A stretch of DNA of 64,000 nt from Blasia pusilla. Lineage: Eukaryota. Location of the stretch: NCBI GenBank assembly GCA_050084515.1, contig CM114271.1, positions 8,370,001 through 8,434,000 of the forward strand, read 5' to 3'. This document shows, piece by piece, positions 7,740-31,500 of the stretch. The position numbers and the translations under genes are program-made. The notes under the pieces were generated by a model that was given only the letters and a program-made list of their open reading frames with translations, did not search any database and had not been told where the DNA came from. Each line of letters starts with the position of its first letter. Position 1 is the first letter of the stretch.

Positions 7740-7864
7740 TTTCGTGTAGTGTTTTCAGCAGCGGAAGAATGCGTTCATCATGTTCCGGGTGGGCGCCCCT
7801 GAACCAAAGCGGGAAACCAGCGAGAAGCGGGATAGTAATCGAAAATGTCGAGAGCGCGAATAAT

Positions 7865-7872
7865 TAGGGTTT
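7865..7872 (-). promoter_or_regulatory. Telo-box (AAACCCTA) upstream of CBP80
   Basis: TAGGGTTT on the + strand, about 125 bp upstream of the CBP80 ATG; this motif is common in plant RNA-processing and translation gene promoters. An 8-mer can arise by chance. Confidence 0.4.
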
Positions 7873-9205: not shown

Positions 9206-9340
9206 ATAGCTCCGCCGTCTCATGCCAAGAGGTTCAACAAAGAGAGAATGAGCTCTCAAGCTCTCTCTCTTGGAGGTATACCCCCTTCCCTCTCCCAAAC
9301 TCTCTCCACGGTAACCTATACTTGCACGTCACCTCCTTGG
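9206..9340. repeat. Dispersed repeat fragment (probably LTR-derived), interrupted by the copia element at 9341
   Basis: Aligns with 22731-22864 (atagctccgccg...catgccaagaggttcaacaaagagagaatgagctct...gtcacctccttgg); similarity stops exactly at the copia LTR start. Confidence 0.8.
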
Positions 9341-9652
9341 TATTGAAGATTGAGTTACAGTCAAGCTCTTGAGACACCTAAACTGCTACATTTGGTACTC
9401 ACACAAAGTAGGGGAGCTTAATCTTGGTTAGTCAGTTAAGCGCGATTATCTTAACTATGATTAGTCAATCACAGTTAGTCTAACTCGAGACTATGGTTAA
9501 GATTAGGGTTATGATCGCTTGTACACACCCTATACAATTGAGAAGGGGATCAGCCTCCACTTATTCCGTCATTGCAAATTTCGTTCTCCATGGTGGTGTG
9601 TGAGCGTGAGAGTCGTTTCCTGCCAGTTATGCTTCTTTAGCAATTTTCCACA
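9341..9652 (+). repeat. Copia 5' LTR (copy 1)
   Basis: Homologous to the LTRs at 55239-55553 and 60239-60553; starts TATTGAAG, ends TTCCACA. Confidence 0.92.
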
Positions 9653-12600
9653 CGGTATCAGAGCGATAGGAGAACATCACTTGAATTTCTGGATGTTTGA
9701 GGAGAGAAGAGAGGCAAAAGAAGGAAATTTTTCAATTTGGGAGAAGGAAATTTTATTCAAAGCTAGTGGGTGCACATTTAAGGTGGAGCTTTGACAGTGA
9801 TAACACTTTGGAGACATTTTTAAAGGCTTTCCCGGCCGATTAAGCCATTTGGCAAGAAAAATACCAAAGTTTAGTTTTACTTGCCCTGTAGAGCTCGTCA
9901 AAAGCTTTCCAACGCATCCAAAATCCCTCGATTCTGACATTGTGAACTCCTGCAATAGCAATTTCAGTGTAGGAAAGTGCAATTAGTGAAGAAAAGTTGT
10001 GCAGCTTGCTCTCTACAAGCCAATTTCGACTAATTCTTTCATACAATTAATTAATTTTGGTAAATTTCAGGTCGATTTCTGCATAGGAGTGATCGATGCT
10101 TCAATTGGAGTAGTATAGAGCATAAAATTACGTCTTTGTGAGTGAAATCGCTCGTCATGGAGTATTCCTCAACACCAGTCAAAGGCGAGAAGCTAGATAA
10201 GTAGAATTACAATGTCTAGAAGTTTCGCATGAAAAAAATTCTCATGGGTCAAGAACTATGGGAGCTTGTCACATGTGATGAGGCCAAGCTATAAGGCGAC
10301 TCAACAAACTTGAATGTTCACGCTTGGAACAAACGCGCAAGGCAAGTAATCCACTACATTTTAATAACGATCAGTTTGCCAATGATAGGTCACATCCAAG
10401 ATATTGATACTCCGGAGGAGACGTGGGATGTATTGGAAAAGTTCTTCCAGACATCTACAAAGGCCATAAAGCTTCAATTGAAACAAAAATTGAACGAATT
10501 GAGTAAAGGATCGGAGAGCATCAATGATTATATTTTGAGTATGAGACATATTGTTGATCAGATGAATAGCATTAGAGTGACAGTAGAAGATGATGATATG
10601 ATTTTTTTTCACTCTTCAAGGCCTTCCAAAGGATTACAAGTCCTTTGAGACCTCTATCTCTGTAAGAGAGAAGTATCCAACCTTTCAAGAGTTAGTTCCT
10701 CTATTGATCAGTGAAGAGATGCGCCTAGTAGGCAGCGGTAACTCGTATAGTCTACAAGAGAGTGCGCTATTTGCAAGTTATGGATCAAATAAAGACACGG
10801 GTCCTGCTAGAAACTTCTATGGTCGTGGTGGATATCAAACATATGGAGGAATAGGCACTCAATATAGCGTCACTCAATCAACTACGAACTAGTACCAGAC
10901 ACAATCATAATATGGTGATGGTGGAAACCGTAAGGTTCGAGGTCGGCAACAGAGGGTCCATAGATCTTGCAATTAATGTGTGATAAAGGATCACTATGCA
11001 AAGTTTTGCTTCAAGAAGAAGGCACGTATGAGAACAAGAGTCTTAGAACAACAAAACTATGTGGAACAACAACACCAATAGCAGTACTAAGAACAACAAC
11101 ATTCACAAACAGAGCATCTATTGGTCATAACTCATCATATGGGAGCAATGGTCAAGAAAGACTCGACAACAGATTGGTACATTGATTGTGGTGCATCAAA
11201 TCACATGACCTCACAAGCTCAATGGTTCAATAGTTTTGAGTCGGTGAAAGATCCAGCAATTGTGCTCACGGGAGATGACACTCAACATCATATCACGAAT
11301 ACCGGTAAAGTTCCAATAGCATCAGATGGTCTTTGTGGTTTTGGAAATGTTCTCTATGTTCCTACCATTGCAAGAAAATCTTATCTCTATAAGATAAATA
11401 GTAGAACATGGTTATCAAGTAAAGTTTAACGCATATGGTTTTTTCATTGAAACAATGGATCAGTAGACTACCATAGCCAAAGGAACTAGATCTAGCAGAA
11501 TGTTTAAATTAGATGTTTTTATGCTAGAGATTCAAACAATAATGTATGGTCAAACCGGCCAACAAGTCATAAATCTAAATGTGTGGCATAAAAGAATTGG
11601 ACATATGAATCTTCAAAGATTACAGAGTCTTTCATCATCTAATATAATAATATGACTCCCTAAATTAGCCAGTCTTGCTATGTTAGAGGTCTGTCCTGCT
11701 TGCCAATTTGGAAAACAAGCTAGATTTCATTTTCCAAAGCAAGGTAGAAGAGCATACAAGATTTTGGAGTTGGTCCATAATGATGTGTGGATAGCATCAC
11801 AACATAGTCTTAGTTGTTGCCAGTACTTTGTTTCATTTATTGATGACTTCTCTAGGTATATATGGGTATACTTTTTGAAAGCCAAGTTAGAGGTATTCTC
11901 AGTGTTCCAAACATTTAGAGTTCTAGTAGAGACGCAAATTGGAGAACACATTTTGAAATTACGTTGTGATGGAGGAGGAGAGCATCTTTCAACAGAGTTT
12001 GATGACTATTTACGTCATAATGATATCCAACGTCAAGTGACTTGCCGTTACACTCCACAACAAAATGGAGTGGCTGAGAGGAAGAATCGACATATTGTTG
12101 AAGCGGCACGAGCTATGCTGAATGAGAAAAACATGCCTAAGGTCTATTGGACAGAGGTTGTAGCACGTGAAGTCTTCTTAATAAACCAAACTCCAACAAC
12201 ATGATTTTATGATAAAACTCCATTCGAAGTCTTCATTGGAAGTAAATCTGATTTTTTCTTCTTGAAAGTATTTGGCTGTATTTGTTATGCTCATGTTTAT
12301 TTTAAGAGAAGTCATAAATTACATCGGAAGTCTGAGAGATGTATCTCCATTGGCTATGCTAATGGGACTAAGGGGTAGAAGTGCTACATTCCATCCTCTA
12401 GGCGGCTTACTATTAGTGGCAATGTTATCTTTGATGAGTTAAAGTCATGGTATGCTCCATCTGAGCCTATTTCACCTCTAAACTTGTATGTTGAGGGGGA
12501 GAATATGACTATAAACCAATAGACATTGTCTTCAACTTCCCCAAGTACTTGTGTAGGACTATGAGGGGTCCTAGATTCATCAGTTAAATCTGTGCGTCAA

Positions 12601-14289
12601 TGGACGGGAAGAGTATATATTTAGTCTGTTGACACTAGTGAGAGCTCGAGTCAGGTGTCAGAGGCATCTACCTTTGAACAATAACTTCGTAGATCAAGTA
12701 AAGTTACATATCTAGTTCATAGATTCATAAATGAAGATTTCCTTGCGATCCATCATGCATATATGATGACTAGCCTTCAAGAACAGGAGCCGAGTTATTT
12801 TGAAGAAGGTGCAAGTAAAGTCGAATGGATTGAGGCTATGGGGGAAGAGCTTGCTGCATTAAGACATCAACAGATATGGGAGCTGGTTGATATACCTTCC
12901 GGTAAGGAAGCTATTGGTTGCAAATGGATTTACAAAATCAAGCACAATCAAGATGGTACACTTAACAGATACAAAGCGAGAGTGGTGGCTAAGGGCTATG
13001 CACAACAATATGGCATCGATTATGAGGAAACATTTAGCCTTGTGCAAAGATGGCAACTACGAGAACAGTGGTTGCAGTTGCAGTTAGTAAGAGATGGAGA
13101 TTATATCACATGGACGTCAACAATGCCTTCTTGAATGGAGATCTATACAAGGAGGTATATATGACTCAACCACCTAGATATGAGTATCCTTAGTTTCCAT
13201 TTCGCGTATGTTGGTTGAAAAAAGCTTTATACGGGCTCAAACAAGCTCCAAGAGCTTGCTATGGCAAGATTATATACGTCTTACAAAAGTTGGGTTGTAA
13301 GATATGTGATTCTGACTCCTCGTTATATGTCTTCAAAGGACAAGATCATACGGTTCTCATTGTGTTGTATGTTGATGATCTTTTAATTACTGGGAGTATT
13401 GAAGAAATGGTACAACAAGTCAAACTTAAGTTACAAGTAGAATTTGATATGAAGGACTTCGGAGAGCTCAAGCACTTCCTCAATATTGAGTTTATCAAGG
13501 TTGGAGAGAGCATGTGGTTACTACAACAACAATATGCTTTTCATATGCTTTCAAAATATGGTATGACGACTTATAAGCCAATCTCTATACCGTTGGACCA
13601 GAGTGTGAAGCTTAAGTGGATGAAGGAGAGTTGCTTACAAATTATAATATGTATAGGCGCACGGTTGGAAGTTTGATCTATCTAACTATAACTATACCAA
13701 CTTTTAGTTATGTTGTTGGCCTAATGAGCCAATTTATGTAAGCACCTCGAAAACCTCACCTTGATGTTGTAAGGAGGATTATGTGGAATATGAAATTCTC
13801 TTTTCAATTCGGGCTTCAATTTGAACCTTCTCCGAGTTTTCAATTACAAGGATTCCTAGATGTTAATTAGACTGGAAGCGTGTATGATTGACACTTCCCT
13901 TGTGATTATTCATTTACTTCGGGCCGCGTAACTATAAGTTGGGCTTCAAAATAGCAACCTACTGTTGTTTTGTCTTCAATAGAGATCGAGTACAAAGGAG
14001 CAACCAATGCAACATGTGAGGCGGTGTGGCTTCATCGATTACTTGTTGAGATTGGTGTCAGTAACTTAGGACCTAGTGTAATATATGCAGACAATATTAG
14101 TAGCATCAAATTTGCTAATAACCCTGTGTTTCATGCTCGTACAAAGAATATTGAGATGCACTATCATTTTATCAAAGAGAAAGTGCTTGCGGGAGAAATT
14201 GATATTGTGTATATAGATACAGATCTGCAAATTGCTGACATTTTTACAAAGGTATTGTCGAGAGATAAAATTGAGATATTTAGAAATGA
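9341..14289 (+). mobile_element. Ty1/copia retrotransposon, degenerate, 3' LTR missing (copy 1)
   Basis: 5' LTR 9341-9652, PBS cGGTATCAGAGC (initiator tRNA-Met type) at 9653, gag, protease (WYIDCGASNHMT), integrase (FIDDFSR, YTPQQNGVAERKNR), RT ([17 protein letters not shown]), RNase H (NPVFHARTKNIEMHYHFIKE). Many stops and frameshifts; similarity to copy 2 ends near 14289. Confidence 0.95.
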
Positions 14290-14935: not shown

Positions 14936-15048
14936 GACATCTCTCAGATGCTAAGAGCAAAAAGGTCGGGTGCTCATCTCGCCCCATCGTTAGTCGACTT
15001 CTTATCATCAATGTCACAGACACAAGTCGGAATCTAGAACTACCTACT

Positions 15049-17573
15049 CTATGTACATCTGTGACACATCCATCCTCCCTCAAGAATCCTAGTGAGAGGT
15101 GGCGTTAGACATTCCATATGCCATCCTCTCGAACATCCATTACAGACAAGCATAATAGCTGCACCACAGGCAGAACCATGCAGCATACACGGCAAGCCTG
15201 CAGGAACTATTGCTAAGCTTGGATCAACTATACCATCAATTTTTGGAAGATGACACGGTGCACAGTTACGCACATGGTCCTTCCAAACCATACCAGCGCG
15301 TCCCCCCAATAAGAGAACACCAGATGGGCAAAATCTCACGCATTCTCAAGATGGTGCACCTGCAGTCACATCCAATGTCGTAGGTGCCGCCTGCTGCAAG
15401 TAGCCATAGTCTCCCTGAGGAAACCTCCGGATAGTAGGTCAATAACCACATCCTCAAATAGTCATATATCTCAATGTATCCCGATGTTGTGCAATCACCA
15501 AGTTCTCAAACGCCATGGGCATTACTCTAAAAAAAAAACTCAATCCTCTGAGAACATGCTTGCATCCATACATCAAGGTCATCAAGGTTCAACACCTCAC
15601 CAACATCTCAACGAATGGCCGCAGGTAAATGTGGCTCTCGACCATAAAGCAGCAAGTACGGTGAGAAAGACGCTAAGGATGATGTTTGCATAATCTGTAT
15701 CCCATTGCCAACCACGGCAACTAAAGGTCCCAATTTTCTAGGTGATCTCTTTGCAAGCCATACTTGCGTAATCCTCTCGTCATCGTCTGTACAACTCTCT
15801 CCGCTAGTCCATCTGCCTCAGGATGATCTGGCGAAGTGGTGCGGTGGTCAATCAGCGCCTGATCACACAAGGCCTAAAACTCCTCGTGAAACTCTGTACC
15901 CTGGTCTGTCAACATCTCAACTGGTGTGTCGTAATGACTCAACACTCAATCTAGAAAGGCATACGCTACTCCCTCACTCATTTTGTCAAGCAATGCAACC
16001 AACTCTATCCACTTCGAGAAGTGCTCGATCATCACCAACACATAACGCCTATGGCGCTCCGTCAAAGGCAAAGATCCTGCAAAATCCAAACTCCATCTAT
16101 AACCTAAACCCATGATCGGAAGTGGATGCAACTGTGGAGTTGGAGTATTAGACGATGCTCGAACTTGATCACACACCATGCACCTAGCAACAAACTACTG
16201 AACGTAAGTCTGCATGCCTCCCCATCAATACTGTATATGGAGCAAGTTGTACGTCCGCTTCATTCCAAAATGACCCAACTCCTCGTGGGCATGACGCACT
16301 AAATGTGATCTCTGCGAAGGATGAGGCACTACACGCACTCTACCATCCTCCCAAACTCGTGACACATATGTCCCCTCCCACCGGAATTGTTTCGCTCACT
16401 GTAGGTTCCGGTCCCGGTCTCTAGCTCCCACTGTGCTCACAACCCTGCCAGTACGTAGGTACTCCAAGACCACTCCATCATCATGAATATCTCAGCCACC
16501 TATCATCTCCTCACCGACCTCTGGAACTGAGGACTCTCCATCAGACCTCGCCATCAAAGTCTCATCAATTTGGCTCTCCATAGACAACAAGCCCAAATAG
16601 GCTGACATGTGCCATCATGGCACCAACTCCTCATCACTCTGACCATGCCAACAAGCTCCACTTGCATCTCGCTAACTCGGGCATAGGTTACGGCTCAAAA
16701 CATCTCCATCATGGTTGAGCATCCTAGGTCTATGCATCACTTGGAAATCATACTCTAGCAACAAAAGAGCCCACCTTGCAAGCTTCCATATAAGCTTGTC
16801 TGACTCCATTAACCACTTAAATGGCTGATGATCAATATTGATGGTAAAGGGGTTGCCGAATAGATAACACCTAAAATGTGTGACAATCCACACCGAAGCC
16901 AAGCACTCACCCTCATACAAGCTATACTTTGTCTCTACAGCGTTGTTCGAGCGACTAGCGTAAGCCACCATAAACTATCTACCATCATTGTCATGATGGG
17001 TGAGCATGGCTCCAAGCCCCAACATGCTTCAATCGATATGCAACTCGAAAGGACGCCCCCTGATCTGTCTCCTCAATATGGGCGCGGACGTCAATGTATC
17101 CTTGAGCATCTGAAATGCTCTCTCCTGCTCATCCCCCCAATGCCACTCTCGATCTACCTTGGTCAGCAAGGTTAGCGGCTTTGCAATCGAATTGAAACCC
17201 TTGAAGTACCGTCGATAGAAGTTTGCCAATCCCATGAAGGCACGAACTCGACTCACATCTGTAGGGCGTGGAATGCGTGAAATATCCTCTACCTTCATCT
17301 GACTATACCCAAGTCCCCTTGGGTATATTGTATGACCTAGGTACTCAATCTGGTCGTAGAAGAACTTGCACTTGCCCGGATGTAGCTTCAACCCATGTAA
17401 CTACAATCGTCGAGATACCTCCTCTTGATGTTGCTCATGCTCCTCAACCGTGGCGCTAAAGACTATGATGTCATCAATATAACACGTAGCAAAATCTAGA
17501 CCCGCCAAGATCCTATCCATGACCCTAGGAAACTCATCCGGGGCGTTCTTTAACCCAAATGGTAAGAACCGCC
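15049..17573 (-). mobile_element. Ty3/gypsy pol 3' half: RT C-terminus, RNase H, integrase, C-terminal PHD finger (DNMT-gypsy copy 1, 3' half)
   Basis: RFLPFGLKNAP...CYIDDIIVF (RT); VAYASRSNN...YEGECLA...LARWALLL (RNase H); HEELGHFG...CMVC and WSLDFAG...IEHFSKW (integrase); MLVCNGCSRGWHMECLTPPLTRILEGGWMCHRC (PHD, ORF 15049-15339). Confidence 0.9.
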
Positions 17574-18845
17574 CTCACGGTTCATTAGACAAGAGAAATC
17601 GATCGTGATCCCCCGCAACTCGGTTACCTCCAAAAGGGAAAGCGAGATGAGGTGCCTTTCCAACCAATCGCATTCCCCAACGGGTTGCCGAAGGAAATCC
17701 ATGCGAGATCTCATGGATCCCGACTCCAATCACACACGTCACAACCCGCAGGGGGTACCTACTGACAACTGCGTTCAACCCAACGGACTCTGACGGGTTG
17801 CAAGTTGCAATTGGAAGATGATACCATGCGTCTGAGTCCCAAAATTTGCAACCCGTTGGACTACGACAGGTTGCAACACGATTGAATACATTCCGTCATA
17901 CAATCTCACCTACTAAACAACATCTTGTCAGTCATATTTTGTCAGGAGAATAACGGTCACTATTCACTATAAATTAAGCATTCTCAATCTCATTCCTATT
18001 CTTATTCTTATTCTTATTCTCCACTCGGTGGAATAATCTGGGAATGGATAATTATGTGAAACTCACTCGTGGCAGTCATCTAGCGACTCTTCCTCAATCA
18101 TAAATAATTCGACCGCAAGCTCGTGAGTCTTACATACCAATGGATGAAAAATTCCTCTTGGTGCAATTTCTTCTCCAAATTGGAAGAATCTTTGTTTCCA
18201 AGGATGTTAGGGTGGACGGTACGGAGGACGTTGTAGGTGAGAAAGTCTAGCCAATGATAGCAGATTGTAAAGTATGGAATCTCCTACCTCTAAAAAATGG
18301 TCAATACATGGCTTGTCTCTGAATTCCTCTATTTCCCAAGTAGACAGTCCGAAATTTCCTATATCACCGAGCTTTACGTTTGCCACTCCCAGCTCAGTAG
18401 ATCTAGCATCGACTCCAACTTCACTCGTTCGTAATAATGTTGTACTTCTTGAAGACATTCCGGATGTCATCAACCTCATTGGATCTGTCGGACATCAACC
18501 AGGCCCTCTGTCTGCCTACTCGTTCCTCTTGCGAGTATCCATAAATAGTTTGTTGTCGTCTCTGCCCTTTAAAATATTCAAGCACATTCTTGTTGAAAAA
18601 ATGCCGCCCACGTACGATGGTAATTGCATTTTTGAGTTGCCTCCACCTGCGGGTCTTGCTCAAAAGAAAGATGGAGGACGCTTGAAGGGTATGGATAGAA
18701 AGTCTAATTGTCATCGATGGTGCAGACTTCAACGGACTAGTGCTTCAATTCCAGATGGTCCTTAGATTGTTTCTCGCCGCCAATGCGTTGGAGCCTTGGA
18801 GTGTAGAAGTCTAGGCATCCCGTATCTAGAGCGTAATGGGTGAGT
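17574..18845 (+). other. Unclassified repeat-derived segment with clustered CAACCCG/CGGGTTG motifs and a Cys/Trp-motif ORF fragment (18274-18765)
   Basis: Several CAACCCG/CGGGTTG-like motifs in both orientations at about 17678-17872 and a (TATTCT)n run near 18000; ORF contains PPTYDGNCIFELPP...GMDRKSNCHRW and after a stop continues CVGALECRSLGIPYL. Looks like a DNA-transposon fragment; family not recognised. Confidence 0.35.
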
Positions 18846-18849
18846 CAAT

Positions 18850-21621
18850 ATGTTGCAAGTTGGAGTTTATGCATCACGTTTAGATGTGATGGACTTGCCC
18901 TTGGAGCTTATGCTCGGGCCGTCCACGTCAGATTCATGGCAAGCTGCGGCTGCTAGGATGGCGGAGATGCTCGCCAGACCCGCGATAGAGCGTGCCATGG
19001 CTTCTCCCGGTGTTGTGTTGCTAGATAATTAGGGAGAGGTCTTCCAGTTGGTAAGTCCAAGAGGTTGAGCTTGTAGTCTGCAGCGCGTCTTGTTGGATTC
19101 AGGAGCGCAACCTTGATGTTAGGGAAAGCGACATTTAGAGGTTTGGGCCTCATAAGGGCCGATGTGGAGAGTTATCCATTCCGGATACAGACATCCTTTG
19201 GTGGAGCGAGTACCACACAATATATCATCCAACATGAGGTCGTGGTGAGGATTCGCTCGGGACATCCTTCAGATAAGTCCGTGGTGCGAGCTAAGGCGAT
19301 AATGACCGATGTAGAGTCCTACGACGTCTTGGTTGGTGGACCAATATTGTACCTCATGGGGTTTTTCCTGGATTATTAGGAGGAGTCAGCATCCTAGAAA
19401 TGATGATGGTAGTTAGGTGATGGGCGCCTCAGGTCATTACCCGTTCGATTCACTAGTGTAGTGATCGAGCGCCGACCAAGAGAGATGGTGATCTTAGTAG
19501 CATTTAGCAATGCCATCACTTGGCACAGTGATTTGACTAAGGGACATGTCCATATAGAGGACACTCTCGTTCGTGATATTTCTATGGAGAGGAGTGTCAT
19601 GGTAGCCGCATCAATCCGTGGAGGAGAGGTGCCATGTTGGGGCTTGACTGAGGAGCTTTGATGCTTAGCCAGTGAGCATGTGCAGACCGCGTGGAGTGAG
19701 ACGTTTGCTCAAGAGTGTGATGGGTCAGATGAACCTAAGGTAGTCAAAAGTGCTACTATGACCCCTTTGGACACCGCCTCGATTGTGTGGTGCATTCCAG
19801 AGAAGGGTATTTGCATGTTGGATCTCTTTGGAGGGATCAGCACTGGCATAGTTGATGCTAGAGTGCGCGTGCAGAAGTTCCTGTATGTGAAGGTTGATTA
19901 TGTTGCAAGGCGCGCTTCACTTCACCATGTGGCGCAGTTATGCCTCCGCTTTCCCGACTTGTCTGCGTCCGCCATCCAGGGTTACTAGAGTTCCCTACTG
20001 AGGGATATTTCATTGTTGGGGGCACAGGACTTAGAGCAGGTAGGGACCATAGACTTGGTCATTGCTGGTTGGTCGTGTTAAGGCCAATCGAGTGTTGGAT
20101 GAGGTAGCGGATTAGCTGACACTCGGTCCAAGTTGTTTTGGGAGATGATGCGGATTTTGCGACCCTTGCAAGAGCATCAGTCCCGTTCTCTAGCATACAT
20201 TATGGAGAATGTGCCGATCTTGGGAGATTTGAGATCACAGGTAGTGACGAGTGCACATCAGGTGCATGCATGGAATGGCTCAGCAATGTTTTTGGATGCG
20301 GTGAATGTAGGTTCTAGAGCACACCGTTCGCATCTTTGGTGGACTAACTTGGTGCCACACGAGGTATTGCGGAGGGCATATGCGCAAGTGGAGCGCCCCT
20401 CTTAGTTGTTGGTGGATTCCATATTGGATTCGGGCCGTCGATTACAGGCAGTGAGGCACGATGATCGACCGCCGTTGATTGTGGTCAACAGGATTGGCAT
20501 GCCACAAGCAACCTTTCTCACATTGGTGAGTTTTCCCGCTTCCTATGCACTCAAGGAGGCCGGACTTGGCTTGGTTTGGGATGACCAGGTACAACGGTTG
20601 GTGGAGCCCAACGCCGATGAGCGAGAGCAAGCGATGGGATTTCCCATAGGAGTGACGGTAGTACCGTCACTATCAGAGGCATCACGACATCATGTCTAGG
20701 GTCAGGCGATGGACCTAAACTGCTTGACATGGATTTTCAGCTTAGGAGTAGATGAGCAACATTGTTTGAGGATGTGACAGATCACAGTTGTTGCGTTGGT
20801 AAGCCCTATGCCTATCGAGACAGTTGAGGCAGTGGCTGGGGGCGAGACCCGATGAGATCGACACACCAGGGGTGATCGTGAGAGACATCCTTGGACTTTT
20901 TGGGATATTTTGCAAGTACGCCGGGAGATGGTAGCCACACTGTCGAGCGTGGTTTCGGGTACTGCACATGGAGATCATATTTTGAGTTGGATGTAGGAGA
21001 GCAATCGAGTTCTGTTGTCCGAGATGGGGTTGCATTATAGCAACCACCTACACCCGGGCCGGAGAGTCCTACCGTAGTGACGATGGAGACTTGGGAGCTA
21101 GATATGGGCCCTAAGTTGACAGGAGGAGAGCGGTGCCGGATACACAAGTTCCTTAAGAGTTGTAGGAGCTGCTTTGCATTTAGTATGCATGACTTGGATA
21201 CGCTGAAGGGTCCAGGGATCCGCATTGAGTTGTTTAGTGATACGCCAATCTTCCGACAACCCTACAAGTACAGTGACATGGAAAGGGCTCTGATTCAGAG
21301 TAGGAGCCAGGACTTGGTTGGAGCAAGACTAGTTGAGATGTTGCATGGAGAGTATGTATCTGCCACTAGTATGCCCGCCAAGAAGGATGTGCATGGCAAT
21401 TGGACAGATAGGCAGATGTGTGGAGATTACCAACCTATCAATCAACAAAAGAAGTCCGATAGGTATGCCATGCCCACCCCTGACGAGATCTTTGATGTTA
21501 TTGGGCATGCAAAGGTCTTCAGTCCGTTAAAACTTCAAGCCGGATATCATCAGCTGCCTATCAGATTGGAGGACAGGCAGAAGACAACATTATGGGGCAT
21601 CAATCCTCGCGGGAAGGATTG
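18850..21621 (+). mobile_element. Ty3/gypsy pol 5' half: aspartic protease, C5-cytosine DNA methyltransferase, RT N-terminus (DNMT-gypsy copy 1, 5' half, inverted)
   Basis: VLLDSGAQP protease motif at about 19087-19113; ORF pieces 19113, 19461, 19680, 20133 and 20406 share one frame; RT at 21077-21621 (PIFRQPYKYS...MCGDYQPIN...DRYAMPTPDEIF...LQAGYHQLPI). Confidence 0.9.
19809..20750 (+). pseudogene. DNMT3-like C5-cytosine methyltransferase catalytic domain inside the retrotransposon polyprotein (stop-disrupted)
   Basis: Motifs in canonical order: I LDLFGGISTG, II LYVKVD, III DI, IV IDLVIAGWSC*GQS (copy 2 has GWPC), VI YIMENV, VIII AHRSHLWWTN, IX EREQAMGFP, X RHHV*GQAMD. Motifs VIII-X resemble DNMT3 (AHRARYFWGN, ERVFGFP, RQRLLGRSW). 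Confidence 0.9.
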
Positions 21622-22267
21622 CGGCCACGAGCGGCATGGCACGGCAATCGGCAGCGCATTGCAACTACGGGCATCACGGAAGGGTACTCGATCATCGTCG
21701 AGCGGCTACCAATCACAACGGCTACCAATCACACCATAACCGGAGTCCATCTGCCGTAATTGTTTGACGATGAAACTTCAATGACGGTGGCGGCCAAAAC
21801 AAAGTACATAGTGACTACACTAGTCTAGGAATCAACGAACGTCGTGGAAGACCCTCCACTCTGTAATGGCAGCAATGGCAACCAAAGGGTGGACAACGGC
21901 CGAATGCGGCTCTAACCAACCCTGGGCAAGAGCAACGGTCGACGGTGACTGGTGGACGGTGGACCGTTGACGATGAAGGTTGACCATTCACGGTGATAGT
22001 TGACCATTGACCAATGACGGCGACGATCGCCGCCGGCATGGCGGCTGGTTTAGGGTTTGAACAATTTAACCCTAAAAATCGCCTAGCAACGGCAGTTTTG
22101 CAAGATTGAGCATAACTTTTTCTTCACAACTCCAAACTGTGTATTGTTTGTTGCATAACTTGCACAGCTTTACGATCTACAACAAAATTAAAAAATATTT
22201 GGAATTGGACATCCCAGTAAAAACTGATGGGGATTGTCGTAAAGCCCAATGTCTCTTTCTCCTACAC

Positions 22268-23315: not shown

Positions 23316-25032
23316 ATGTTTAGGTATGGGTTTCCTCTATATTTTTCTTCATGGTCTAATAGGTTCCAAATAACAAAAGAAGTGAATGAAAAAAAAAGAT
23401 GTTTTATGGAAAAAAAAAAAAAGGATTTGTTAAAATGTGAGGGTGTTGTATTAGATGAAGAGTTCATTAGTGGGAAGTATGAAGAAGAGGGTTTTGGAGA
23501 TAGCCTTGAAGAGGTGTTCATTCATATGAGCACCGAATCGTTGGATACGAGTATGATTACAATTCACTCGCGTGAGTTGTATGAAGAAATATCAAGGTTC
23601 ATGGAAGGAGAAAATGGATATGAATCTACAAAGAAGGAATCGGATAGGCACGAGTTTGAGGCAGACGAACATCCCATGGAGGCACAAGTGCATACTAGAT
23701 ACAAGATGATGGCCCGGAAGGTGAAGCCAATGGCTACTCAACTACTAGAGGGTTATGGGAAATAAGTAGAATGTGCATCAATGGAGCCAAGTCTACAGGA
23801 CGTCAGAAAAATAAGACATAAGTTCACAGAAGAGATGCTAGATCGTCTGCAAATTGGAGGGGTGAGTTTCTTACAGAAATTGAAAGGAAAAGCTTTCGGG
23901 AGATGTTAAGGTGACATGGTGAGGCTTTCTATTTTACTACACAAGAAATTGGTTGTGTAGACACGAGTGTGGTGGTACCGATGGTAATTTTCACCGTTCC
24001 ACATATGCCTTGGGATTTGAAACCCATACTAGTACCACGAGCTATGATTCCCAAGCTGATTGAGTTATTGAAGGAGAAGATGTAGATGGGTATCTTAGAG
24101 CCTTCTATGGGGCCTTCCTCGAGTGGATGGTTCACTGTGCCAAAGAAATGAGAAGCTCTCCGGTTCATTCAAGATAAGGAATCGGAAAATAAGGTAACCA
24201 CTCGAAATATGGGAGCGGGGCCTAGAATAGATGAAGTCGCAGAAGCTTTTGCAGCCCGTGCTATCTATTCAATAGGAGATTTGCACTCGATATATGATCA
24301 ATTCCAATCAGCTATGAAGAGTAGAGATATTATCACTATGCACACTCCACTTGGGCTTGTAAGAATGTGCACATTACCTCAAGGGGTAACAAATTTTGTC
24401 GCTCACATACAGAGTGCAATGAACAAGATCTTGAGAGAGTTCATTCTTGAGAAAATCATTCCTTTTGTAGATGATATTCCTATAAAGGGATATGCAATAG
24501 AAGATAGGATTGAGAGGGTTGTGAAAGATGGGTGTAGAAATTTTGTGTCTGATCATATTCGTGATCTGGATATGATCATAGCAAGACTAGAATAGGTCAA
24601 TCTTAATCTTTTTGGAGAAAAGTGTAACTTTGGGGTCCCTCAAATTGTGGTAGTGGGTCATCTTTGTGGAGAGTTTGGCCGAAAACCAAATCCAACAAAA
24701 GTTGATGTAATCGGGAGGATACGAGAATGCGAAAATATCAACGAAGTGAGAAGGTTTTTAGGATCTTGTGTGTTTTATCAGGTGTGGATTCCTCATTTAG
24801 GCCATATATCTGATCCTTTGTATAAGCTGTTGAGAAAGAACAAGAAGTTCACTAGGGAGAAGAAGCAAAGAGCAGCAATGATGCAGTTGAAGGAGGCATT
24901 GAAGTCGCCATTGGTTCAATGATAAATGAGCTATGAATGCGAAAGACCTATTATCATCATAGTGGATACTAGCCCTATTGCTATTGGATAGGCAGTTGGG
25001 GAGGATAACGTGGAAGGAAGGAGATTTGCGAT
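23316..25032 (+). mobile_element. Ty3/gypsy pol fragment (RT to start of RNase H) of a distinct, fungal marY1-like type
   Basis: YKMMARKVKP, VPHMPWDLKPI, WFTVPKK, EAFAARAIYSIGDLHSIYDQF, TPLGLVRMCTLPQGVTN, PFVDDIPIKG, VRRFLGSCVFYQVWIP; truncated at 25032 by an LTR remnant. Confidence 0.85.
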
Positions 25033-25595: not shown

Positions 25596-28500
25596 TTTTT
25601 TAGCTACAATTTTTTGGCGCTGACACCGTGGATCACAAGACTTGCTGAAAAGGGAGAGGCTTATGGGTAACTCCAGGCTGGGGGAAGAAGCCTCGTTGCC
25701 TAGGAGACCCAACCATCTACTTCTCATCGAAGAGAATCTTCTATCTCTAGCTATCCCCCTAAGACAATGGATGGAAGAAGATAGTAATCTTTTTGCTGCA
25801 TTAGTATTAGAGAAGATAGAAAAGTCAATTAGTTTTGTCAAAGAACCCATCGCTGAATGGTGCTTCGCCCATGAACCTCAGTTGTACTTGGTGATGATCT
25901 GGTACTTCTGTTTATGGGAGGAAAACCTCACAAGTAGATTGAGGGCACATTCACACTCCCATAGGAATTAGGAAGATATAACTTTCTCTCCATGGATCAA
26001 TACCCTGTAGCAGTCTTGGATGCACAACCAAGCTCGCAAATCCCAAGAGGGACTCATCCGCTCCCGGCCATCCGCTCAAGATTAGCGCGCTGATCAACGC
26101 AATAAGCAACAAGAAGATCATCCGTCTTGGAGATTGCCGGGTGTATCTCCCAGTCTTTGTCCTCGAACGAAGCCGAAGAGCAAGAAGAGGGATAGGAGTG
26201 CGCTCCCCATCACGTCTCATGCCACTTCTTAGTCGGATGAGGAGTCAACCTGGAATCCCTTTGGGGACTCGGGGGACAAAGGGTCGGCTAGACCAATCAC
26301 ATCTGAACCTCTACCTCCTCCTTCCCAAACATCAAGTCCGAGACCTAGCAACCGAAGTTCCCCAATGGCTAATACTGGGAAGACACTGCTAAGATATCCC
26401 ATGTTTGCGGGAGGATGAAGAGATGACGTTGATAACTTTGTGCTCGAGTTTACCCATGTAGCTAAGGCTAATGGGGAAGGCTCCAAGGAAGATTTGCTAT
26501 GAGGATTCCTGGGCCTGCTAAAGAAGCGGGCAAGCCAGTGGTACGAGGGCTGGAGCGGAAGTCATTGAAACCTGGAGAGGATACTGGAGGCCTTTCTTCA
26601 TGAGTTCCGCGACCTAGAGTTCGAGGACATGCTTTTGACAAAGCTCTGTGATTTAAAACGTAAGAAGAAGGAAACTCTTAGGGAATACACCCAAAGATTC
26701 CGAAGTCTCGTAAACAAACTCATACACACAACTACCTCGCAGTTGGTAGATTGGTTTGTGTCGGGACTATCCAAGGAAATGGACCGATACTGCCATCAGG
26801 GCCAACAAGATTCCCTGGAAGCAGTCATTGCATGAGCAGAGGCATACGAAGCCTCTAAGAAGTCCCACAAAACGCGAAGATGGCATCATCAATGGCGAGG
26901 CTCTTCGCAGACTAGTTCTTCCTCCAAGGACGAAGCGTCCTCTACAGACACCGAAGCCTCTACCAACGACACCACGGTGTCCTCAAACTCCGAAGAAGAC
27001 CCAAAATCCAAACATAAGAGAAAAAGCACACGCCACCACTCTCCCAAGTGTGGATGGAAAACCAAGCCTACAAAGCATGTCCCCCACAGGTCTGTTAGTC
27101 CAGTACGAGGGACTGCAAGGAAGGCAAGCAAGTCTGCCATTGAAGAGTTAAGTAAAAAAATGGCGGAGTTGAAAGTACATTTGGCGGCCGAGAAGGACCC
27201 CAAAAGAAGACCAGGTCTGATGAGGCCCAACGTATGGTGCAGTGTTTGTGGAACCCAAGGGCATACTGCCCAAGAGTGTCACCTTTAGAGAGATCTACGT
27301 TGGAACCAGGAAGACCCAACTATGGAAGAAGGGTGGTATGAAGCCGAACAATGGGAAGGTTGTTATGCAATTCAAGCCATGCCAACCCCTAATCCCAGAC
27401 GAAGTTGATCCCAAGGTATGTGCCTCCGAAATATGGGGAGCAGAGAACCTTGAGATAGATTATGGGCTCTGCGGCCTTCACGCCATCCATAAAAAGGAAT
27501 TGTTGTTACAATTGTGGGGCAGCCGACCATTGGGCCAATAATTTCCAAAATCCCAAGAGGCCAATAGGACTCAATCCATTATGTAGGAATTGCAAGAAGG
27601 GTGGGCACATTGCAGTGGAGTGCCCGAAGCCCAATGTTCCGCGGTTGCTGGTCAAGTATGTTACCACCCCAGCAGCACAAACAGAGTCCAAGTATGAAGT
27701 AAATGTTCAACTCGTCCGAGTGGAGGAGTTAGTGTCCCCCAAGACAGGGCGAGTTACCATGAGGGAAGAGGAGTATGACAGAACGGCACCCAAAGAATCC
27801 TCAGAGTGGCCCAAGGAACTCATGAACGAAGCTCTCGCTATCACCACGAGGTCCAAAACCCAGAACGCAAGGACAACCAAGACGAGGGTAGGGGCTTCGT
27901 CTTTGCGCGAAGTCAAAGACCCCAAGAAGAAAAGCGTTGACACTTTCTGCGTCGGGAAGGCCATTCTCAAAAGAGATCTCAACCCTGCCTTTGACCAAAG
28001 TCATCCCAAGTACTTCCATCAAGATGTCGAGGACCAGGTTCATGCTCAAGTTTGCCAAGACCGAGGCCTAGAACAGGTGTCACAGCAGACACCAGAGAAC
28101 TCAAGGGAAGAAAAGGTGCCAGCACTACAAGCCACCGTGACATCCCCATTGGTTTTAGAAGCCTACGACTTACTCATGGACTTGGCATCAACGCCGGAAA
28201 ATATCACCTTGTTACATTTGTTGATGGATAACCCTGTTTACGGTAAAATTTTGCAACAATGGTAGATGAGCCGTAGGAAACCCAAGAAGTCCTCAAAGAG
28301 TCTACCAGTAGTTGATTTATACAGTAGCAGGCGTTGTCCCGGTGCGGATGAGGCAGTATTGTCTCAATCTTAAAAACTCGTTGTTGGTCAAGGACAAAAT
28401 TGACCAGCGTCTCGAAGCTGGAATAATTTACCCCATGTTAAGTAGCAAGTGGGTGTCTCCCATTGTAATTTTACCCAAGAAGCAAACCAGGAAAATCAGG

Positions 28501-31500
28501 GTGTGCCAAGATTATCGAAAGTTGAATGCGGCCACCTTAAAAGACCATCATCCCCTACCCTTCACCGACACCATTTTGGACAAAGTCACCGGCCACGAGC
28601 GTTATACATTTTTTGATGGGTACTCGGGTTATAACCAGATATCCATTAGGGAGAAAGATCTTCACCTCATGACATTCACCACGGATTGGGGCACCTTCGC
28701 ATATCGAGTAATGCCGTTTGGTTTGTGCAATGCATTGTCAACCTTCTAGCGGATGATGATCTCCATCTTCCAAGAGTATCTGCGGAAGTTCGTCAAAATT
28801 TTCCTCGACGACTTTTGTATTTTCACTACAGAAGCAGAGCATTTGCAAAAATTAGAATTAACCGTGGCTCAATGTCGCAAAGTGCATTTATCCCTCCATC
28901 TTGAAAAATCATATATTGCAATGAGACAAGGTATCTTGTTGGGACACCGAGTGTCTACCCAAGGGATTGAGGTCGATAAGGCCAAAGTAGATATTATCGT
29001 AGCATTGGAACCTCCCATGAATCTAAGAGAATTGAGAGGCTTCTTGGACCATGTCGGATACTATCGACGGTTCATTAAGGATTATGCGGTAAAAGCAAAG
29101 GCCCTAACCGCGTTTCTTAAGAAGGCCATCGAATGGGAGTGGACCCCAACCTGCCAAGCAACATTTGAAGCATTAAAACAAGCATTGTTTGCGGCTCCTG
29201 TACTTCGGTCCCCTGACTAGACATGACCCTTCCACGTGTATGTGGACACATTGTCGTTTGCCATTGGGGTGGTGCTCAACCAGCTTGATGATAAAAAACA
29301 TGATTATTCGGTTTATTACACCGGACGACAATTATCTTCAGCCAAACAGAAATATACCACTACCAAACAGGAGGCGTTGGGAATGGTCTTCTCGTGCAAG
29401 AAGTTTCGCCATTATTTATTAGGGTATGAGTTCGTCTTTCATGTGGACCATTTTTCACTCGGACCGTTAATGGTCAAGGTGGACATTTCAGGTCACATTG
29501 CGCGTTGGATCTTGTTACTTCAGGAATTTACATTTGATGTAATTACCCGTGCCAGGAAGGTCCATACCAACGCAGATTTCTTATCACGGTTGCGGATGAC
29601 AAATGCCGACCTTACACAGACCTTGGACCATACCTTCCCTGGTGAGGACATGTTCCAGATTACTGAGGACCGATTGGGCCAATCCCTCTATAAAGATATT
29701 TTGCGTTTTCTGATTACCTTACAACTTCCAGCTCCTATGATGGCGGAGGAAGGGGGAAGGGCACCGCTTTGTACCAAAGCACTTCGCGATGTAACAGGCA
29801 AGTAAAAGCAAAGAAGTGCTTCGGTCTTATGCGAAGCGCGAACGGAAGAAGAGCTTCGGTCTTATGCAAAGTGCGAAGAGGCAGACTCTAACCGTTGAGG
29901 TAGGGTACTTACACCCGCGCCGCCACAACCAAGAAAATGTTCAAGACTTCGCCCACATAAGTGCCTGCCTACTACCCGGGCGGTCATTTTCATGGATGGA
30001 GTAACCACAAAGTTGCACAACAGACCGAAGCACGGAGCACATAGGGATCAACCTACATCACTTCTTTCGGCACCCACGATGCCTCGTGAAGACTCAACGC
30101 CCATCCTTCAAAGTGCGGCCATGCCACTGATAAAGCTATCACCCGAATTAGTCGAAGCACTCAAGGAGTCATCACTCGCAACATTTTTTCAATCCAATTG
30201 GACATTGACGTTAGGCAACCTTCCAAGGGAGCTTTGCTCTTTGGCCGTAGCTGCCAAGTCTAGGAAGAAAGGGTTCTGGTATTGCGCCCAGCCATGACAG
30301 TGGACTTTGGATGATTGGAGAGCGACTTATATGCTTCCTTCCGCTCCTGAGTATGAGTATGACATAGATTTGATGGTAAAGCACGAAGATTTTTTGGCAC
30401 TCGGCTGTGTGACGTCGGACCGCTTAGGCAGAAATGGCTACAAGGCTACCTCGTTGTCCCCACCCTTGTTCGGACAATTTTGCAAGCACCTGATGACCTT
30501 GTTTTATCCTGCTCGCTCTTACTACTTGACAAATAAGCTTGTTAAGATGTGCTACGTTCTCTGGAATCAGCATCTGGACCCCGAAGCACCAAGGGTCGAC
30601 TTCGCTACATTCTTGGACGGACACGTACAAGCAATGCTCAAAGCGCTCCATCCGAGCATGAAGTCTTTCTTGTTACCTTTTTTAATCCACTTGTACATTC
30701 ATAAGCAAGAATTGACTGCCAATGAGGCACTGGATTGGACGCAAGTGACTCCAGTACGCTTACCAAAGACGGGCCAAGCTTTACCTTCAGGAAGCCGCAA
30801 AGTCACGCTGACGCGCGAAGCAGTTCAAAGGCAACATCCCCATGCTTCGGCTTCAGGAAAAGATGAAGCACAAACTGAACTGCCAAGACGAAAGCGTGGA
30901 AGGGTAAATTTAAGACGCCTTCAGATGCATACCCGACGCCCCAAGAGAATTCGGTGGAGACCCCTTGCACTAGCGACGAGCCCCCTACTCTTCGTCGCAT
31001 GACACACACAGCAACGCACCTTGTGTGGTTTCTTAATCTGGCCGTTCCCATCATGAGTTAACTACCGCAGGTACTACACCTAGACAAAAAAGTAGACGTG
31101 GACTAGTATCTACAAGCGCTCAATGATATGAACTACAGAGCATAAGCTTCGTTAGAGAATGAAGCACATCGAAGAGTGGTAGAGCAACAGCTCGAGGTTT
31201 GCAATCAAGAAGTTGAAGACACTAAAGCGACACTTCGTAAGCTCAAACCGAGTTGGTACAAGCCCAATATGAATCACGGAATGCACACCAATGGGAAAGC
31301 TTGGCAATCAATATGGAGTTTGGGGCGGATCAATTGGTATCCCAAGTCAAGGAAGCTTCGCAGTTGATTCGACAGTACCAACACCAAGTGACTCTTCTCC
31401 AGAAGGAATTCAAGAAAGCAGCGACACAGAACGCCCATATATCTAAGCTACTTCAAGATCAACAGGAAACTAACACGAACTTAGTAGCACAATGGTCACG

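Follow-up and report, generated by a model that had tools for sequence, protein, structure and literature searches.

Two decayed copies of a Ty3/gypsy retrotransposon family, probably old in the green lineage, with a DNMT3-like cytosine methyltransferase in Pol

Does a DNMT3-like cytosine methyltransferase (MTase) that lies between the protease (PR) and the reverse transcriptase (RT) of a retrotransposon belong to the element, and if so, what would it do there? We considered both questions for a window of 64,000 nucleotides of Blasia pusilla DNA, which is the whole stretch analysed and to which all coordinates refer. The original prediction of a Ty3/gypsy element with such an MTase between PR and RT is supported by Pfam matches and by colinearity with P0055, an uninterrupted polyprotein of 2358 aa whose DNMT domain stands in frame between PR and RT. 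It is very probable that both elements in the window are decayed copies of a single Ty3/gypsy family, that the intact Pol of this family has the order gag(CCHC)-PR-DNMT3-type MTase-RT-RNase H-integrase-PHD, and that the family is old and extends across the green lineage.

The first half of copy 1 occupies 18886-21621 of the forward strand. It begins with the last part of the gag-PR linker, followed by the active site of the protease (18886-19112, placed by motif and by residues 578-648 of the Marchantia polyprotein P0041, which correspond to 18919-19128). The protease motif LLDSGA, predicted upstream of the MTase, is present at 19090-19107 and shares its frame with 18844-19032. The remaining protease sequence and a linker leading into the MTase follow (19113-19733, by alignment to P0041), then the MTase itself, a pseudogene at 19734-20750 (Pfam read-through, P0041 alignment and family alignment). 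Next come an MTase-RT linker that contains a frameshift (20751-21058, alignment to family polyproteins) and the N-terminal half of RT (21059-21621, P0055 residues 1331-1512), which stops at an inversion breakpoint, 21621|21622. The predicted order of protease, MTase and RT therefore stands, but the single stop-broken frame in which they were said to lie does not. The frame switches near 19110, so that 18886-19112 and 19113-19733 are in different frames (421 of 1998 reads have an extra C behind 19110), and RT (21059-21610) is in another frame than the MTase. Because of these two frameshifts, the reading from PR to RT is not strictly in one frame. A single frame covers 19113-20975 and aligns with residues 644-1262 of P0041 at 48% identity; the PR-to-MTase stretch 19077-20699 has 11 in-frame stops.

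The other half of copy 1, from the end of RT to a PHD finger, lies inverted at 15052-17573 on the reverse strand (Pfam; P0055 residues 1518-2345), as one frame interrupted by stops. Read along that strand, it contains the C-terminal half of RT (17565-17326; RVT_1, 1.1e-17), RNase H (17139-16750; RT_RNaseH, 1.3e-28), the integrase zinc finger (16320-16156; Integrase_H2C2, 4.7e-13), the integrase core (16101-15820; rve, 3.5e-12) and the PHD finger, PF00628 (15159-15055; PHD, 2.7e-6). Position 21621, at which the element had been said to end, is the exact point where family reads switch to 17573 on the opposite strand, and this joint is carried by 402 DNA reads and by 22, 21 and 17 RNA reads. Copy 1 has the appearance of a 5'-truncated insertion that was later turned by a single inversion, with breakpoints at 17573|17574, inside RT, and at 21621|21622. 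Except for this inversion, the pieces in the window are colinear with P0055 and show the Ty3/gypsy order PR-RT-RNase H-integrase. The 5' truncation lies at about 18886, upstream of which 1194 family DNA reads diverge from the window. The spacer between the two halves (17574-18885) has no match to the family polyproteins and is most likely the old 5' flanking DNA, moved along with the inversion. It is repeated in the genome, with a depth of 145 to about 1570 as compared with 1150-3700 on the element and an RNA depth of about 0-7, and its ORF at 18271-18765 matches no Pfam family. A joint of 21208 to 16926, found in RNA only, is bordered in the window by GG..AG instead of GT..AG and was not called an intron.

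Copy 2 runs along the reverse strand from 38157 to 36060. Its MTase (37479-38157, family alignment) spans motifs IV (IAGWPC, then a stop) to X and corresponds to residues 313-540 of P0001; because it begins at motif IV, motifs I-III are absent. A linker and RT follow at 36060-37183 (RVT_1, 4.5e-22), cut off at 36059. That a second copy shares the MTase-RT junction and keeps the catalytic GWPC, as the original prediction held, was confirmed: IAGWPC is retained, and the two copies have 79.5% DNA identity over 1545 aligned bases. The RT of copy 2 is unbroken across the inversion point of copy 1, with 36109-36580 corresponding directly to 17102-17573 and 36593-36761 to 21452-21620 in inverted orientation. 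Copy 2 has lost both ends (the 5' one at about 38157) and contains stops and frameshifts.

Judged from their reading frames, both window copies are dead, and neither can make protein; an open reading frame able to give the enzyme was found in neither. No function is therefore expected at this locus. Both copies show C-to-T and G-to-A decay, as expected of methylated DNA. Alignment of the window to the family polyproteins gave no gag match, since truncation at about 18886 (copy 1) and about 38157 (copy 2) has removed it; the family itself has gag. No flanking direct repeat or LTR pair could be assigned to the window copies, both of which are truncated.

For the MTase itself, we searched Pfam with the stretch 19077-20699, stops being written as X, and obtained a match to DNA_methylase (PF00145) above the curated cut-off (E 4.4e-8, 33.4 bits, cut-off 22); the separate ORF pieces gave sub-threshold matches only (best E 0.0039). 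In copy 1, motifs I (LDLFGGISTG), IV (IAGWSC, then a stop), VI (ENVP), VIII (SRAHRSHLWWTN) and X (EREQAMGFP) follow one another in the canonical, non-permuted order, unlike DRM, when aligned to DNMT3A and 22 relatives, as had been predicted for these motifs. Motif IV is altered in this copy (SC, then a stop), and so is motif VIII (R-S-H). A profile of 23 domains compared with PDB sequences matched DNMT3A at 7.7e-25, DNMT3B at 2e-22, DRM at 1.3e-14, M.HhaI at 9e-9 and DNMT2 at 3.9e-6, and DNMT1 was absent among the 56 matches listed. With the predicted structure of the domain (pLDDT 86), all 34 Foldseek matches listed were DNMT3A/B/C (best E 4.7e-17, TM 0.82). The proposed likeness to DNMT3 thus agrees both with the profile, in which DNMT3A is ahead of DRM, and with the fold. 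In sequence and predicted fold the domain appears nearest to DNMT3A/B, which is a statement of similarity and not of tree placement.

The best sequence and fold matches, cellular DNMT3A/3B/3C (2qrv, 8te1, 6u8p), have motifs I, IV, VI, VIII and X in the same order, and in this comparison SRAHRxRxWWTNL corresponds to SAAHRARYFWGNL. Identity to these enzymes is about 20-24%. The element domain differs from them in being embedded in a retroelement polyprotein and in its longer target-recognition region (368 aa in the query, about 280 aa in the chains, TMq about 0.6); in addition, Pfam gave neither a PWWP nor an ADD domain in the element.

Whether the MTase is a trait of the family can be judged from its intact members. 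In P0055, Pfam gives the order PR 663-711, DNMT 953-1137 (PF00145, E 8.1e-8), RVT 1443-1596, RNase H 1660-1789, integrase 1925-2090 and PHD 2300-2344. The same order is found in frame in 14 Marchantia proteins, and the junction is common to copy 2. Rather than having termini of its own or lying out of frame, the domain is carried in frame by intact members. On this comparison the MTase is a family trait, as first claimed, and not a chance nesting. The order gag-PR-DNMT-RT-RH-INT-PHD recurs in relatives from Marchantia, Calypogeia, Sphagnum and green algae (chlorophytes), with gag seen in the sequences of P0041 and P0055 and in the protein name 'CCHC-type domain'. There were 103 long polyproteins at E<=1e-5 and 1153 cluster representatives at E<=1e-3; 38 relatives are of similar length and 22 are longer, 14 of the latter from Marchantia polymorpha. 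Among related cluster members, the only named entries were Scenedesmus 'pol'. A protein-atlas search, made without alignment, returned PF00145, commonest in Streptophyta, together with phage clusters.

Two metagenome loci have paired LTRs, L004 (307 nt, 94.5% identity) and L025 (about 340 nt, 92%, TG..CA ends), with the DNMT some 3.9-4.0 kb inward of the LTRs in each; in L025 a TSD and a primer-binding site were not recognisable. In locus L054 the DNMT is displaced to between RNase H and integrase, still inside Pol. Stops interrupt the DNMT match in 20 of the 22 close metagenome loci examined. Within the bryophyte clade, most metagenome relatives are decayed and no fully open full-length copy was found. 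Outside it, P0055 (by tree) is intact, as is L054, which has a 2014-aa ORF and 41% identity to the A1 query and is not in the tree.

In a tree that covers members of this family only, the window copy falls in a bryophyte branch with 99% SH-aLRT. The branch has 18 rows: nine from Marchantia, two each from Sphagnum and Calypogeia, four with no species label, and the window copy. Because the Sphagnum rows are nested among liverwort rows, the tree does not simply follow the hosts. The family is probably old and widespread among green plants, with members in liverworts and mosses as well as in chlorophyte and streptophyte algae, and the window copy belongs to the bryophyte clade.

Another check on whether the domain matters to the element is its conservation. 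Among 239 family domains, 235 retain the catalytic Cys and 238 the Glu of ENV; for the two Arg of RxR the counts are 235 and 236. In 115 of the 239, Glu (GWECQD) takes the place of the Pro that precedes this Cys, and the bryophyte clade retains the canonical GWPCQG. Between diverged copies dN/dS is low, at 0.16-0.19 for locus L016 against five other diverged loci, as compared with 0.82-0.97 in a shifted-frame control; pN is 0.259 for the DNMT and 0.224 for RT-RH-INT. Between the dead window copies, dN/dS is 0.39 for the DNMT, 0.34 for RT and 0.67 for the MTase-RT linker, with 0.58-0.76 in wrong frames. The pattern shows purifying selection on the MTase domain in the family.

The family is high-copy and transcribed in Blasia. 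Read depth on the element is about 1150-3700 from roughly 1% of one DNA run, a figure uncalibrated against a single-copy reference, and family RNA is present in all three RNA runs. Stranded RNA cover flips with the orientation of the element, at 25-152 against 0.4-25 on the forward half and 88-248 against 1-24 on the reverse half (bins 15000-17463); the call of 'sense' relies on the usual dUTP library convention. Across the DNMT bins the RNA depth is 29-82. Most RNA reads (in run X14, 4169 of 4849) resemble the window at less than 90%, so they establish transcription of the family and not translation or intact ORFs. At least 99% likeness to the window was seen in 73 of 116050 aligned DNA reads. 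A search of sequencing runs with the exact stretch listed no RNA run, and the DNA shares were only 0.13-0.18, results on which we place no weight.

Elements of this kind have been known since 2018. The original prediction mentioned DNMT-bearing retrotransposons in dinoflagellates and a charophyte, correctly according to the text of PMC5890265, the charophyte being Klebsormidium: KnitGypsy-Dnmt3 of Klebsormidium nitens has a DNMT3 in the Pol of an LTR Gypsy element (de Mendoza 2018, Nat Commun 9:1341, PMC5890265). We liken our family to it by description, not by sequence comparison, and no Klebsormidium-named match is among the relatives listed. As described there, KnitGypsy-Dnmt3 is likewise an intronless, DNMT3-related, non-rearranged C5 MTase in a streptophyte Gypsy Pol with conserved key residues, and its Ka/Ks of <0.2 compares with the 0.16-0.19 found here between diverged relatives (PMC5890265). 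The hosts differ, being here bryophyte-grade land plants (relatives named Marchantia, Calypogeia and Sphagnum) and chlorophytes. KnitGypsy-Dnmt3 has DIRS-like repeats (Fig. 4c legend, PMC5890265), whereas L004 and L025 have plain direct LTRs; the PHD finger of our family is unmentioned in the main text on KnitGypsy-Dnmt3. SymbioDIRS-Dnmt3 and SymbioLINE-Dnmt of Symbiodinium are also retrotransposon-encoded DNMTs, but in a DIRS element with a tyrosine recombinase and in a LINE; their host belongs to another eukaryotic supergroup, and the paper treats them as captured independently (PMC5890265). SymbioDIRS-Dnmt3, a DNMT3-like enzyme, methylates CG de novo in yeast, the sole activity shown for retrotransposon-encoded DNMTs in the text of that paper. 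Chromoviruses similarly carry a histone-reader module on the integrase C-terminus, presumably for integration-site choice; theirs is a chromodomain, and our family has a PHD finger (PF00628) instead, plus the MTase.

What may be new is the presence and abundance of such elements in bryophyte-grade land plants. In the literature, as covered by article texts, we came across no account of retrotransposons with a DNMT in bryophytes or in other land plants. The consulted portions of PMC12344493, PMC5784723, PMC6453930, PMC10952607 and PMC11982613 contain no such description, and those of 10.1101/2021.02.12.428880, 10.1101/2021.11.30.470311 and 10.64898/2026.05.21.726589 likewise contain none on land-plant DNMT retrotransposons. 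One review, in the portion consulted, states that methylase-encoding transposons are absent from land plants.

What, then, would the MTase do? Our preferred reading, a tentative one to which we give a little less than an even chance, is that in intact copies it methylates the element's own cDNA. The enzyme would be made within Gag-Pol, might be released by the element's protease, and would travel with RT and integrase. Its de novo methylation of the element's double-stranded cDNA would precede or accompany integration, and new insertions would arrive pre-marked like host heterochromatin, either as camouflage or as self-limitation. The PHD finger of the integrase could steer integration by reading the histone H3 tail.

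An active MTase could also have its main target elsewhere, in host chromatin, rival transposons or the insertion site, or could serve the host by damping the element, options raised by de Mendoza et al. in the text of PMC5890265. The DNA depth and the RNA in all three runs make a trans effect on the methylome conceivable, and the PHD finger suggests dealings with chromatin. However, the position in Pol beside RT, which the bryophyte and chlorophyte clades share, fits coupling to reverse transcription, and even the displaced domain of L054 remains within Pol, so that we consider a main target other than the element's cDNA unlikely. Still less probable, in our estimate, is a module that is kept without being a DNA methyltransferase in vivo, acting instead as an RNA methyltransferase, in binding nucleic acid or S-adenosylmethionine, or as a structural part of Pol. 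GWECQD, found in nearly half of the domains, is unusual for C5 DNA MTases, and expression of the KnitGypsy-Dnmt3 domain in yeast led to no DNA methylation; the authors' verdict on that result is inconclusive, however, because human DNMT3B failed too (PMC5890265). The bryophyte clade, moreover, has the canonical motif, the nearest solved relatives are the DNA enzymes DNMT3A/B and not DNMT2, and the near-complete conservation of the catalytic residues is not what a mere scaffold would lead one to expect. There is next to no chance that a host DNMT3 fragment came to lie in or beside an unrelated retrotransposon, or that the assembly is chimaeric: copy 1 is rearranged, with its inversion and foreign spacer, and few DNA reads are near-identical to the window, but the PR-DNMT-RT junctions recur in copy 2, P0055, the Marchantia proteins and the LTR-paired metagenome loci, and the contiguous form of RT is found in hundreds of DNA reads and dozens of RNA reads. 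An artefact could account for the inversion and not for the domain, for which chance nesting is refuted.

The role of retrotransposon-encoded DNMTs has been an open question since 2018, the sole enzyme shown to be active coming from a dinoflagellate, a host that is hard to manipulate. In Marchantia, knock-outs, methylomes and induced transposition are routine. If the family is abundant and transcribed in liverworts and mosses, as the reads suggest, the question becomes testable there. The PHD finger of the integrase would be a second epigenetic module in the same element. For annotation, the 14 Marchantia gene models with PF00145, and those of Calypogeia and Sphagnum, are transposon Pol fragments and not host methyltransferases. 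A wider reading, which we hold with considerable doubt, is that an ancient gypsy-DNMT3 lineage spanning the Viridiplantae survived the move to land, that it now forms a high-copy, transcribed family in bryophytes, the genetic model Marchantia polymorpha among them, and that its active enzyme pre-methylates cDNA or adds to host de novo methylation. If that were true, it would contradict the published statement that land plants are without methylase-encoding transposons, and part of bryophyte DNA methylation would be transposon-made.

The window is eukaryotic and crowded with transposon remains. In copy 1, a decayed Ty3/gypsy remnant, the protease active-site motif LLDSGA (19090-19107, plus strand) is followed by a cytosine methyltransferase (MTase) and, at 21059-21610 on the same strand, by reverse transcriptase (RT), which was placed by alignment and lies in a different frame from the MTase. 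The segment 19113-20975 (plus) aligns in a single frame to residues 644-1262 of the Marchantia polymorpha protein P0041 at 48% identity. Taken singly, the ORF fragments were not long enough for Pfam (best E 0.0039); when 19077-20699 was translated straight through, with X for each of 11 stops, DNA_methylase (PF00145) matched at E 4.4e-8 (33.4 bits; curated cut-off 22). The alignment places motifs I (LDLFGGISTG), IV (IAGWSC, then a stop), VI (ENVP), VIII (SRAHRSHLWWTN) and X (EREQAMGFP) in canonical order. The original prediction of protease, MTase and RT in that order therefore holds, as does the canonical order for these five motifs, but its single reading frame does not, because the frame shifts near 19110 and again at the MTase/RT boundary.

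The remainder of copy 1 does not lie downstream of the RT start. It is found on the minus strand at 17565-15052, in a single frame with stops, where the Pfam matches are RVT_1 (C-terminal half; 1.1e-17), RNase H (1.3e-28), the zinc-finger and core domains of integrase (4.7e-13 and 3.5e-12) and a PHD finger (2.7e-6). Residues 1331-1512 of P0055, an uninterrupted 2,358-aa polyprotein of metagenome origin, align to 21059-21610 (plus), and residues 1518-2345 to 17565-15052 (minus). The cross-strand joint 21621-17573 is crossed by 402 DNA reads and by 22, 21 and 17 RNA reads catalogued under the same species, which shows the form of normal family copies. Family DNA reads diverge from the window before 18886 (1,194 reads) and behind 17573 (1,287 reads). 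The simplest account, read from these family reads, is a 5'-truncated minus-strand insertion followed by a single inversion of 17574-21621, with one breakpoint within RT and the other in the former upstream flank, now the spacer 17574-18885. Only 73 of the 116,050 aligned DNA reads are at least 99% like the window, so the read evidence is for the family and not for the window's own junctions.

Copy 2 (38157-36060, minus strand) is 79.5% identical to copy 1 over 1,545 aligned bases. Its MTase-RT portion is real, as predicted, with IAGWPC retained and RT unbroken as far as 36060; the MTase begins at motif IV, motifs I-III being missing. Both copies are dead. Much of the window is occupied by a separate repeat family, with segments of about 4.6 kb at 9341-13956 and 55239-59866 (45.9 kb apart, 83-91% alike). 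A 300-nt direct pair at 55239-55538 and 60239-60538 (5 kb apart, 93%) looks like the LTRs of another element, and a protease-type DSGA motif lies at 57095. Unrelated gypsy RTs occur at 23852-24907 (plus), 28411-29589 (plus) and 50400-51515 (minus).

That the MTase is a family trait, as had been claimed, is borne out by related elements. Queried with the MTase segment, a word-indexed search returned 38 relatives of comparable length and a further 22 that are longer, 14 of these 22 from Marchantia polymorpha; named sources also include Calypogeia fissa, Sphagnum troendelagicum and Sphagnum fallax. These bryophyte relatives were already in public proteomes, filed as hypothetical proteins. In P0055, a CCHC knuckle precedes protease (663-711), DNA_methylase (953-1137), RVT_1 (1443-1596), RNase H (1660-1789), integrase (1925-2090) and PHD (2300-2344), the domains being assigned by Pfam. 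Its MTase as query retrieved 103 long polyproteins at E<=1e-5, the majority listing RT, RNase H, integrase and PHD, with Haematococcus lacustris, Monoraphidium neglectum and Closterium among the named sources; a Scenedesmus 'pol' is also a relative. When 1.84 billion representatives were searched exhaustively with HMMER, 1,153 matched at E<=1e-3, of which 105 reached E<=1e-30; in many, the match lies deep within a protein of 1,000-3,400 aa. One protein retrieved with the P0055 MTase, P0283 (1,974 aa), has the full eukaryotic gypsy architecture with PHD. In NCBI it is assigned to a metagenome-assembled genome of a bacterium ('Minisyncoccia bacterium'); its source is probably a misbinned algal contig.

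Among related elements in metagenome DNA, paired LTRs surround the coding region in L004 (307 nt at 94.5% identity) and in L025 (about 340 nt at 92%, TG..CA), with the MTase starting 3.9-4.0 kb inside the element, and L016 runs from gag to integrase in a single frame with only two stops. The MTase is thus an in-frame component of Pol and did not arrive afterwards as an insert with separate termini. In another metagenome element, an uninterrupted 2,014-aa ORF (L054:4314-10355) carries RT-RNase H at 4539-6092, the DNMT at 6615-7598 and integrase-PHD at 7824-9272; the module has changed place within Pol in the wider family.

We class the MTase as DNMT3-type by similarity of sequence and predicted fold, and not by tree; with the Pfam and alignment results, this agrees with the predicted gypsy element bearing a DNMT3-like domain. 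Against the PDB, P0041 alone ranks 25 DNMT3A/B/C sequences first (1.7e-8 to 2.3e-5), followed by M.HaeIII (1e-3) and a DRM (2.6e-3). A profile built from 23 MTase domains gave 56 PDB matches, including DNMT3A (7.7e-25), DNMT3B (2e-22), DNMT3C (2.6e-22), DRM (1.3e-14 and 1.3e-11; 4onj is a tobacco DRM), M.HhaI (9e-9) and DNMT2 (3.9e-6); DNMT1 was absent among the 56. The AlphaFold model of the related domain P0002 (pLDDT 86, pTM 0.86) has exclusively DNMT3A/B/C chains among its 34 listed Foldseek matches, the best listed being 8te1_B (E 4.7e-17, target-normalised TM-score 0.82).

We built a tree of 67 domains with quick IQ-TREE (LG+G4). Every named row of sufficient cover was included, together with 20 selected unnamed rows and a random 25 of those left over from the 239; 7 named rows that are only partial were added as well. 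The window copy falls in an 18-row branch (99% SH-aLRT) with nine Marchantia, two Sphagnum, two Calypogeia and four rows lacking a species name; chlorophyte rows lie on the opposite side. By this placement a bryophyte is the most likely host. The two rows from the moss Sphagnum (P0015, P0056) nest within the liverwort rows, adjoining Marchantia on short branches. Host descent does not account for this nesting, which could stem from horizontal transfer among bryophytes, from the existence of several ancient lineages or from a contaminated assembly.

Across the 239 domains covering the profile, the catalytic Cys is present in 235; ENV keeps its Glu in 238 and its Asn in 231, and motif VIII keeps its two Arg in 235 and 236. 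The catalytic Cys is preceded by Pro in 108 domains and by Glu in 115; the Glu form (GWECQD), unusual among C5 MTases, occurs mostly outside the bryophyte clade. The proposed dN/dS comparison gave 0.16-0.19 for the MTase when L016 was set against five diverged DNA copies, where dS is about 1.8 and synonymous sites are nearly saturated, versus 0.82-0.97 for a control with the same columns shifted by one base. Close copies gave 0.83-0.85, as expected for neutral decay after insertion. In one pair, pN of the MTase (0.259) was about equal to that of RT-RH-integrase (0.224), and copy 1 versus copy 2 gave dN/dS of 0.39 for the MTase and 0.34 for RT, against 0.58-0.76 in wrong frames. In this transcribed family the DNMT3-type MTase sits in frame within Pol, adjoining RT, and is both conserved and under selection. 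In two close copies (L002:117-1469 and L004:9989-11335) the MTase region is open for about 450 codons while the rest of Pol is broken, and in both of them in-frame stops lie equally far out, 12-15 nt ahead of the match and about 235 nt beyond it. The two copies may owe these stops to a shared master, or the MTase alone may be under selection.

In about 1 in 100 of one genomic run, summed depth of reads at least 80% like the window was about 1,150-3,700 over the element and 145 in the least covered spacer bin, and 99,252 of the 116,050 reads were less than 90% alike. By this depth, uncalibrated against single-copy sequence, the family is therefore high-copy and diverse. Three RNA-seq runs cover both element halves with a strong strand bias that reverses with element orientation: the first mate lies on the minus strand at 25-152 versus 0.4-25 over 18808-21700, and the bias is opposite, 88-248 versus 1-24, over 15000-17463. 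Depth in MTase bins is 29-82. By the usual library convention this RNA is the sense strand, and it originates from other copies, not from the window locus. A further joint, 21205-21208 to 16926-16929 on opposite strands, occurs in all three RNA runs (6, 12 and 2 reads), next to a neighbouring RNA-only cut (3, 11 and 3 reads), and is absent from all DNA reads. It omits about 1,060 nt of RT in element terms. In the window its ends read GG..AG and share 3 nt; an expressed variant that is spliced or carries a deletion could produce it, as could template switching.

Where reads (set X11) differ from the window, the window carries A in place of G at 237 positions and T in place of C at 261; the opposite changes occur at 117 and 116. 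At least 6 of the 11 copy 1 stops stand where relatives have Trp, Gln or Arg, and CpG observed/expected is 0.53-0.68 in the window copies with TG/CA in excess. This decay has the pattern left by deamination of methylated cytosines. The ratio is 0.61 for the whole window, 0.28 for L016:321-6809 and 0.39 for L054:4314-10355; these nearly intact elements are more CpG-depleted than the dead window copies, suggesting that the active lineages have themselves been CG-methylated over the long term.

We tentatively favour a role in which the MTase would be produced with Gag-Pol and would methylate the double-stranded cDNA of its own element, either ahead of integration or as it happens, as de Mendoza et al. 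argued for DIRS elements (PMC5890265). By analogy with chromoviruses, whose integrase carries a chromodomain, the PHD finger that integrase carries here would select chromatin. Action of the MTase in trans on host DNA, or as self-limitation, seems unlikely. That it has no action on DNA is rather improbable. The Klebsormidium domain produced no methylation in yeast, an inconclusive result because DNMT3B likewise failed (PMC5890265).

The kind is already known, and the charophyte precedent mentioned in the original prediction is KnitGypsy-Dnmt3 of Klebsormidium nitens, an LTR Gypsy element whose Pol contains an intronless domain related to DNMT3 with Ka/Ks <0.2 (PMC5890265); later papers from the same circle write 'streptophytes' where they cite that work (PMC12344493, 10.64898/2026.05.21.726589). 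The Klebsormidium element has a DIRS-like repeat structure (Fig. 4c legend, PMC5890265), whereas L004 and L025 have ordinary LTRs, and the PHD finger found here is unmentioned in the main text of that paper. The main text of freely available papers yielded no account of DNMT-bearing retrotransposons in bryophytes, and an earlier mention is possible. The present family places the kind in land plants, high-copy and transcribed, and its presence in a model plant makes its function open to experiment.
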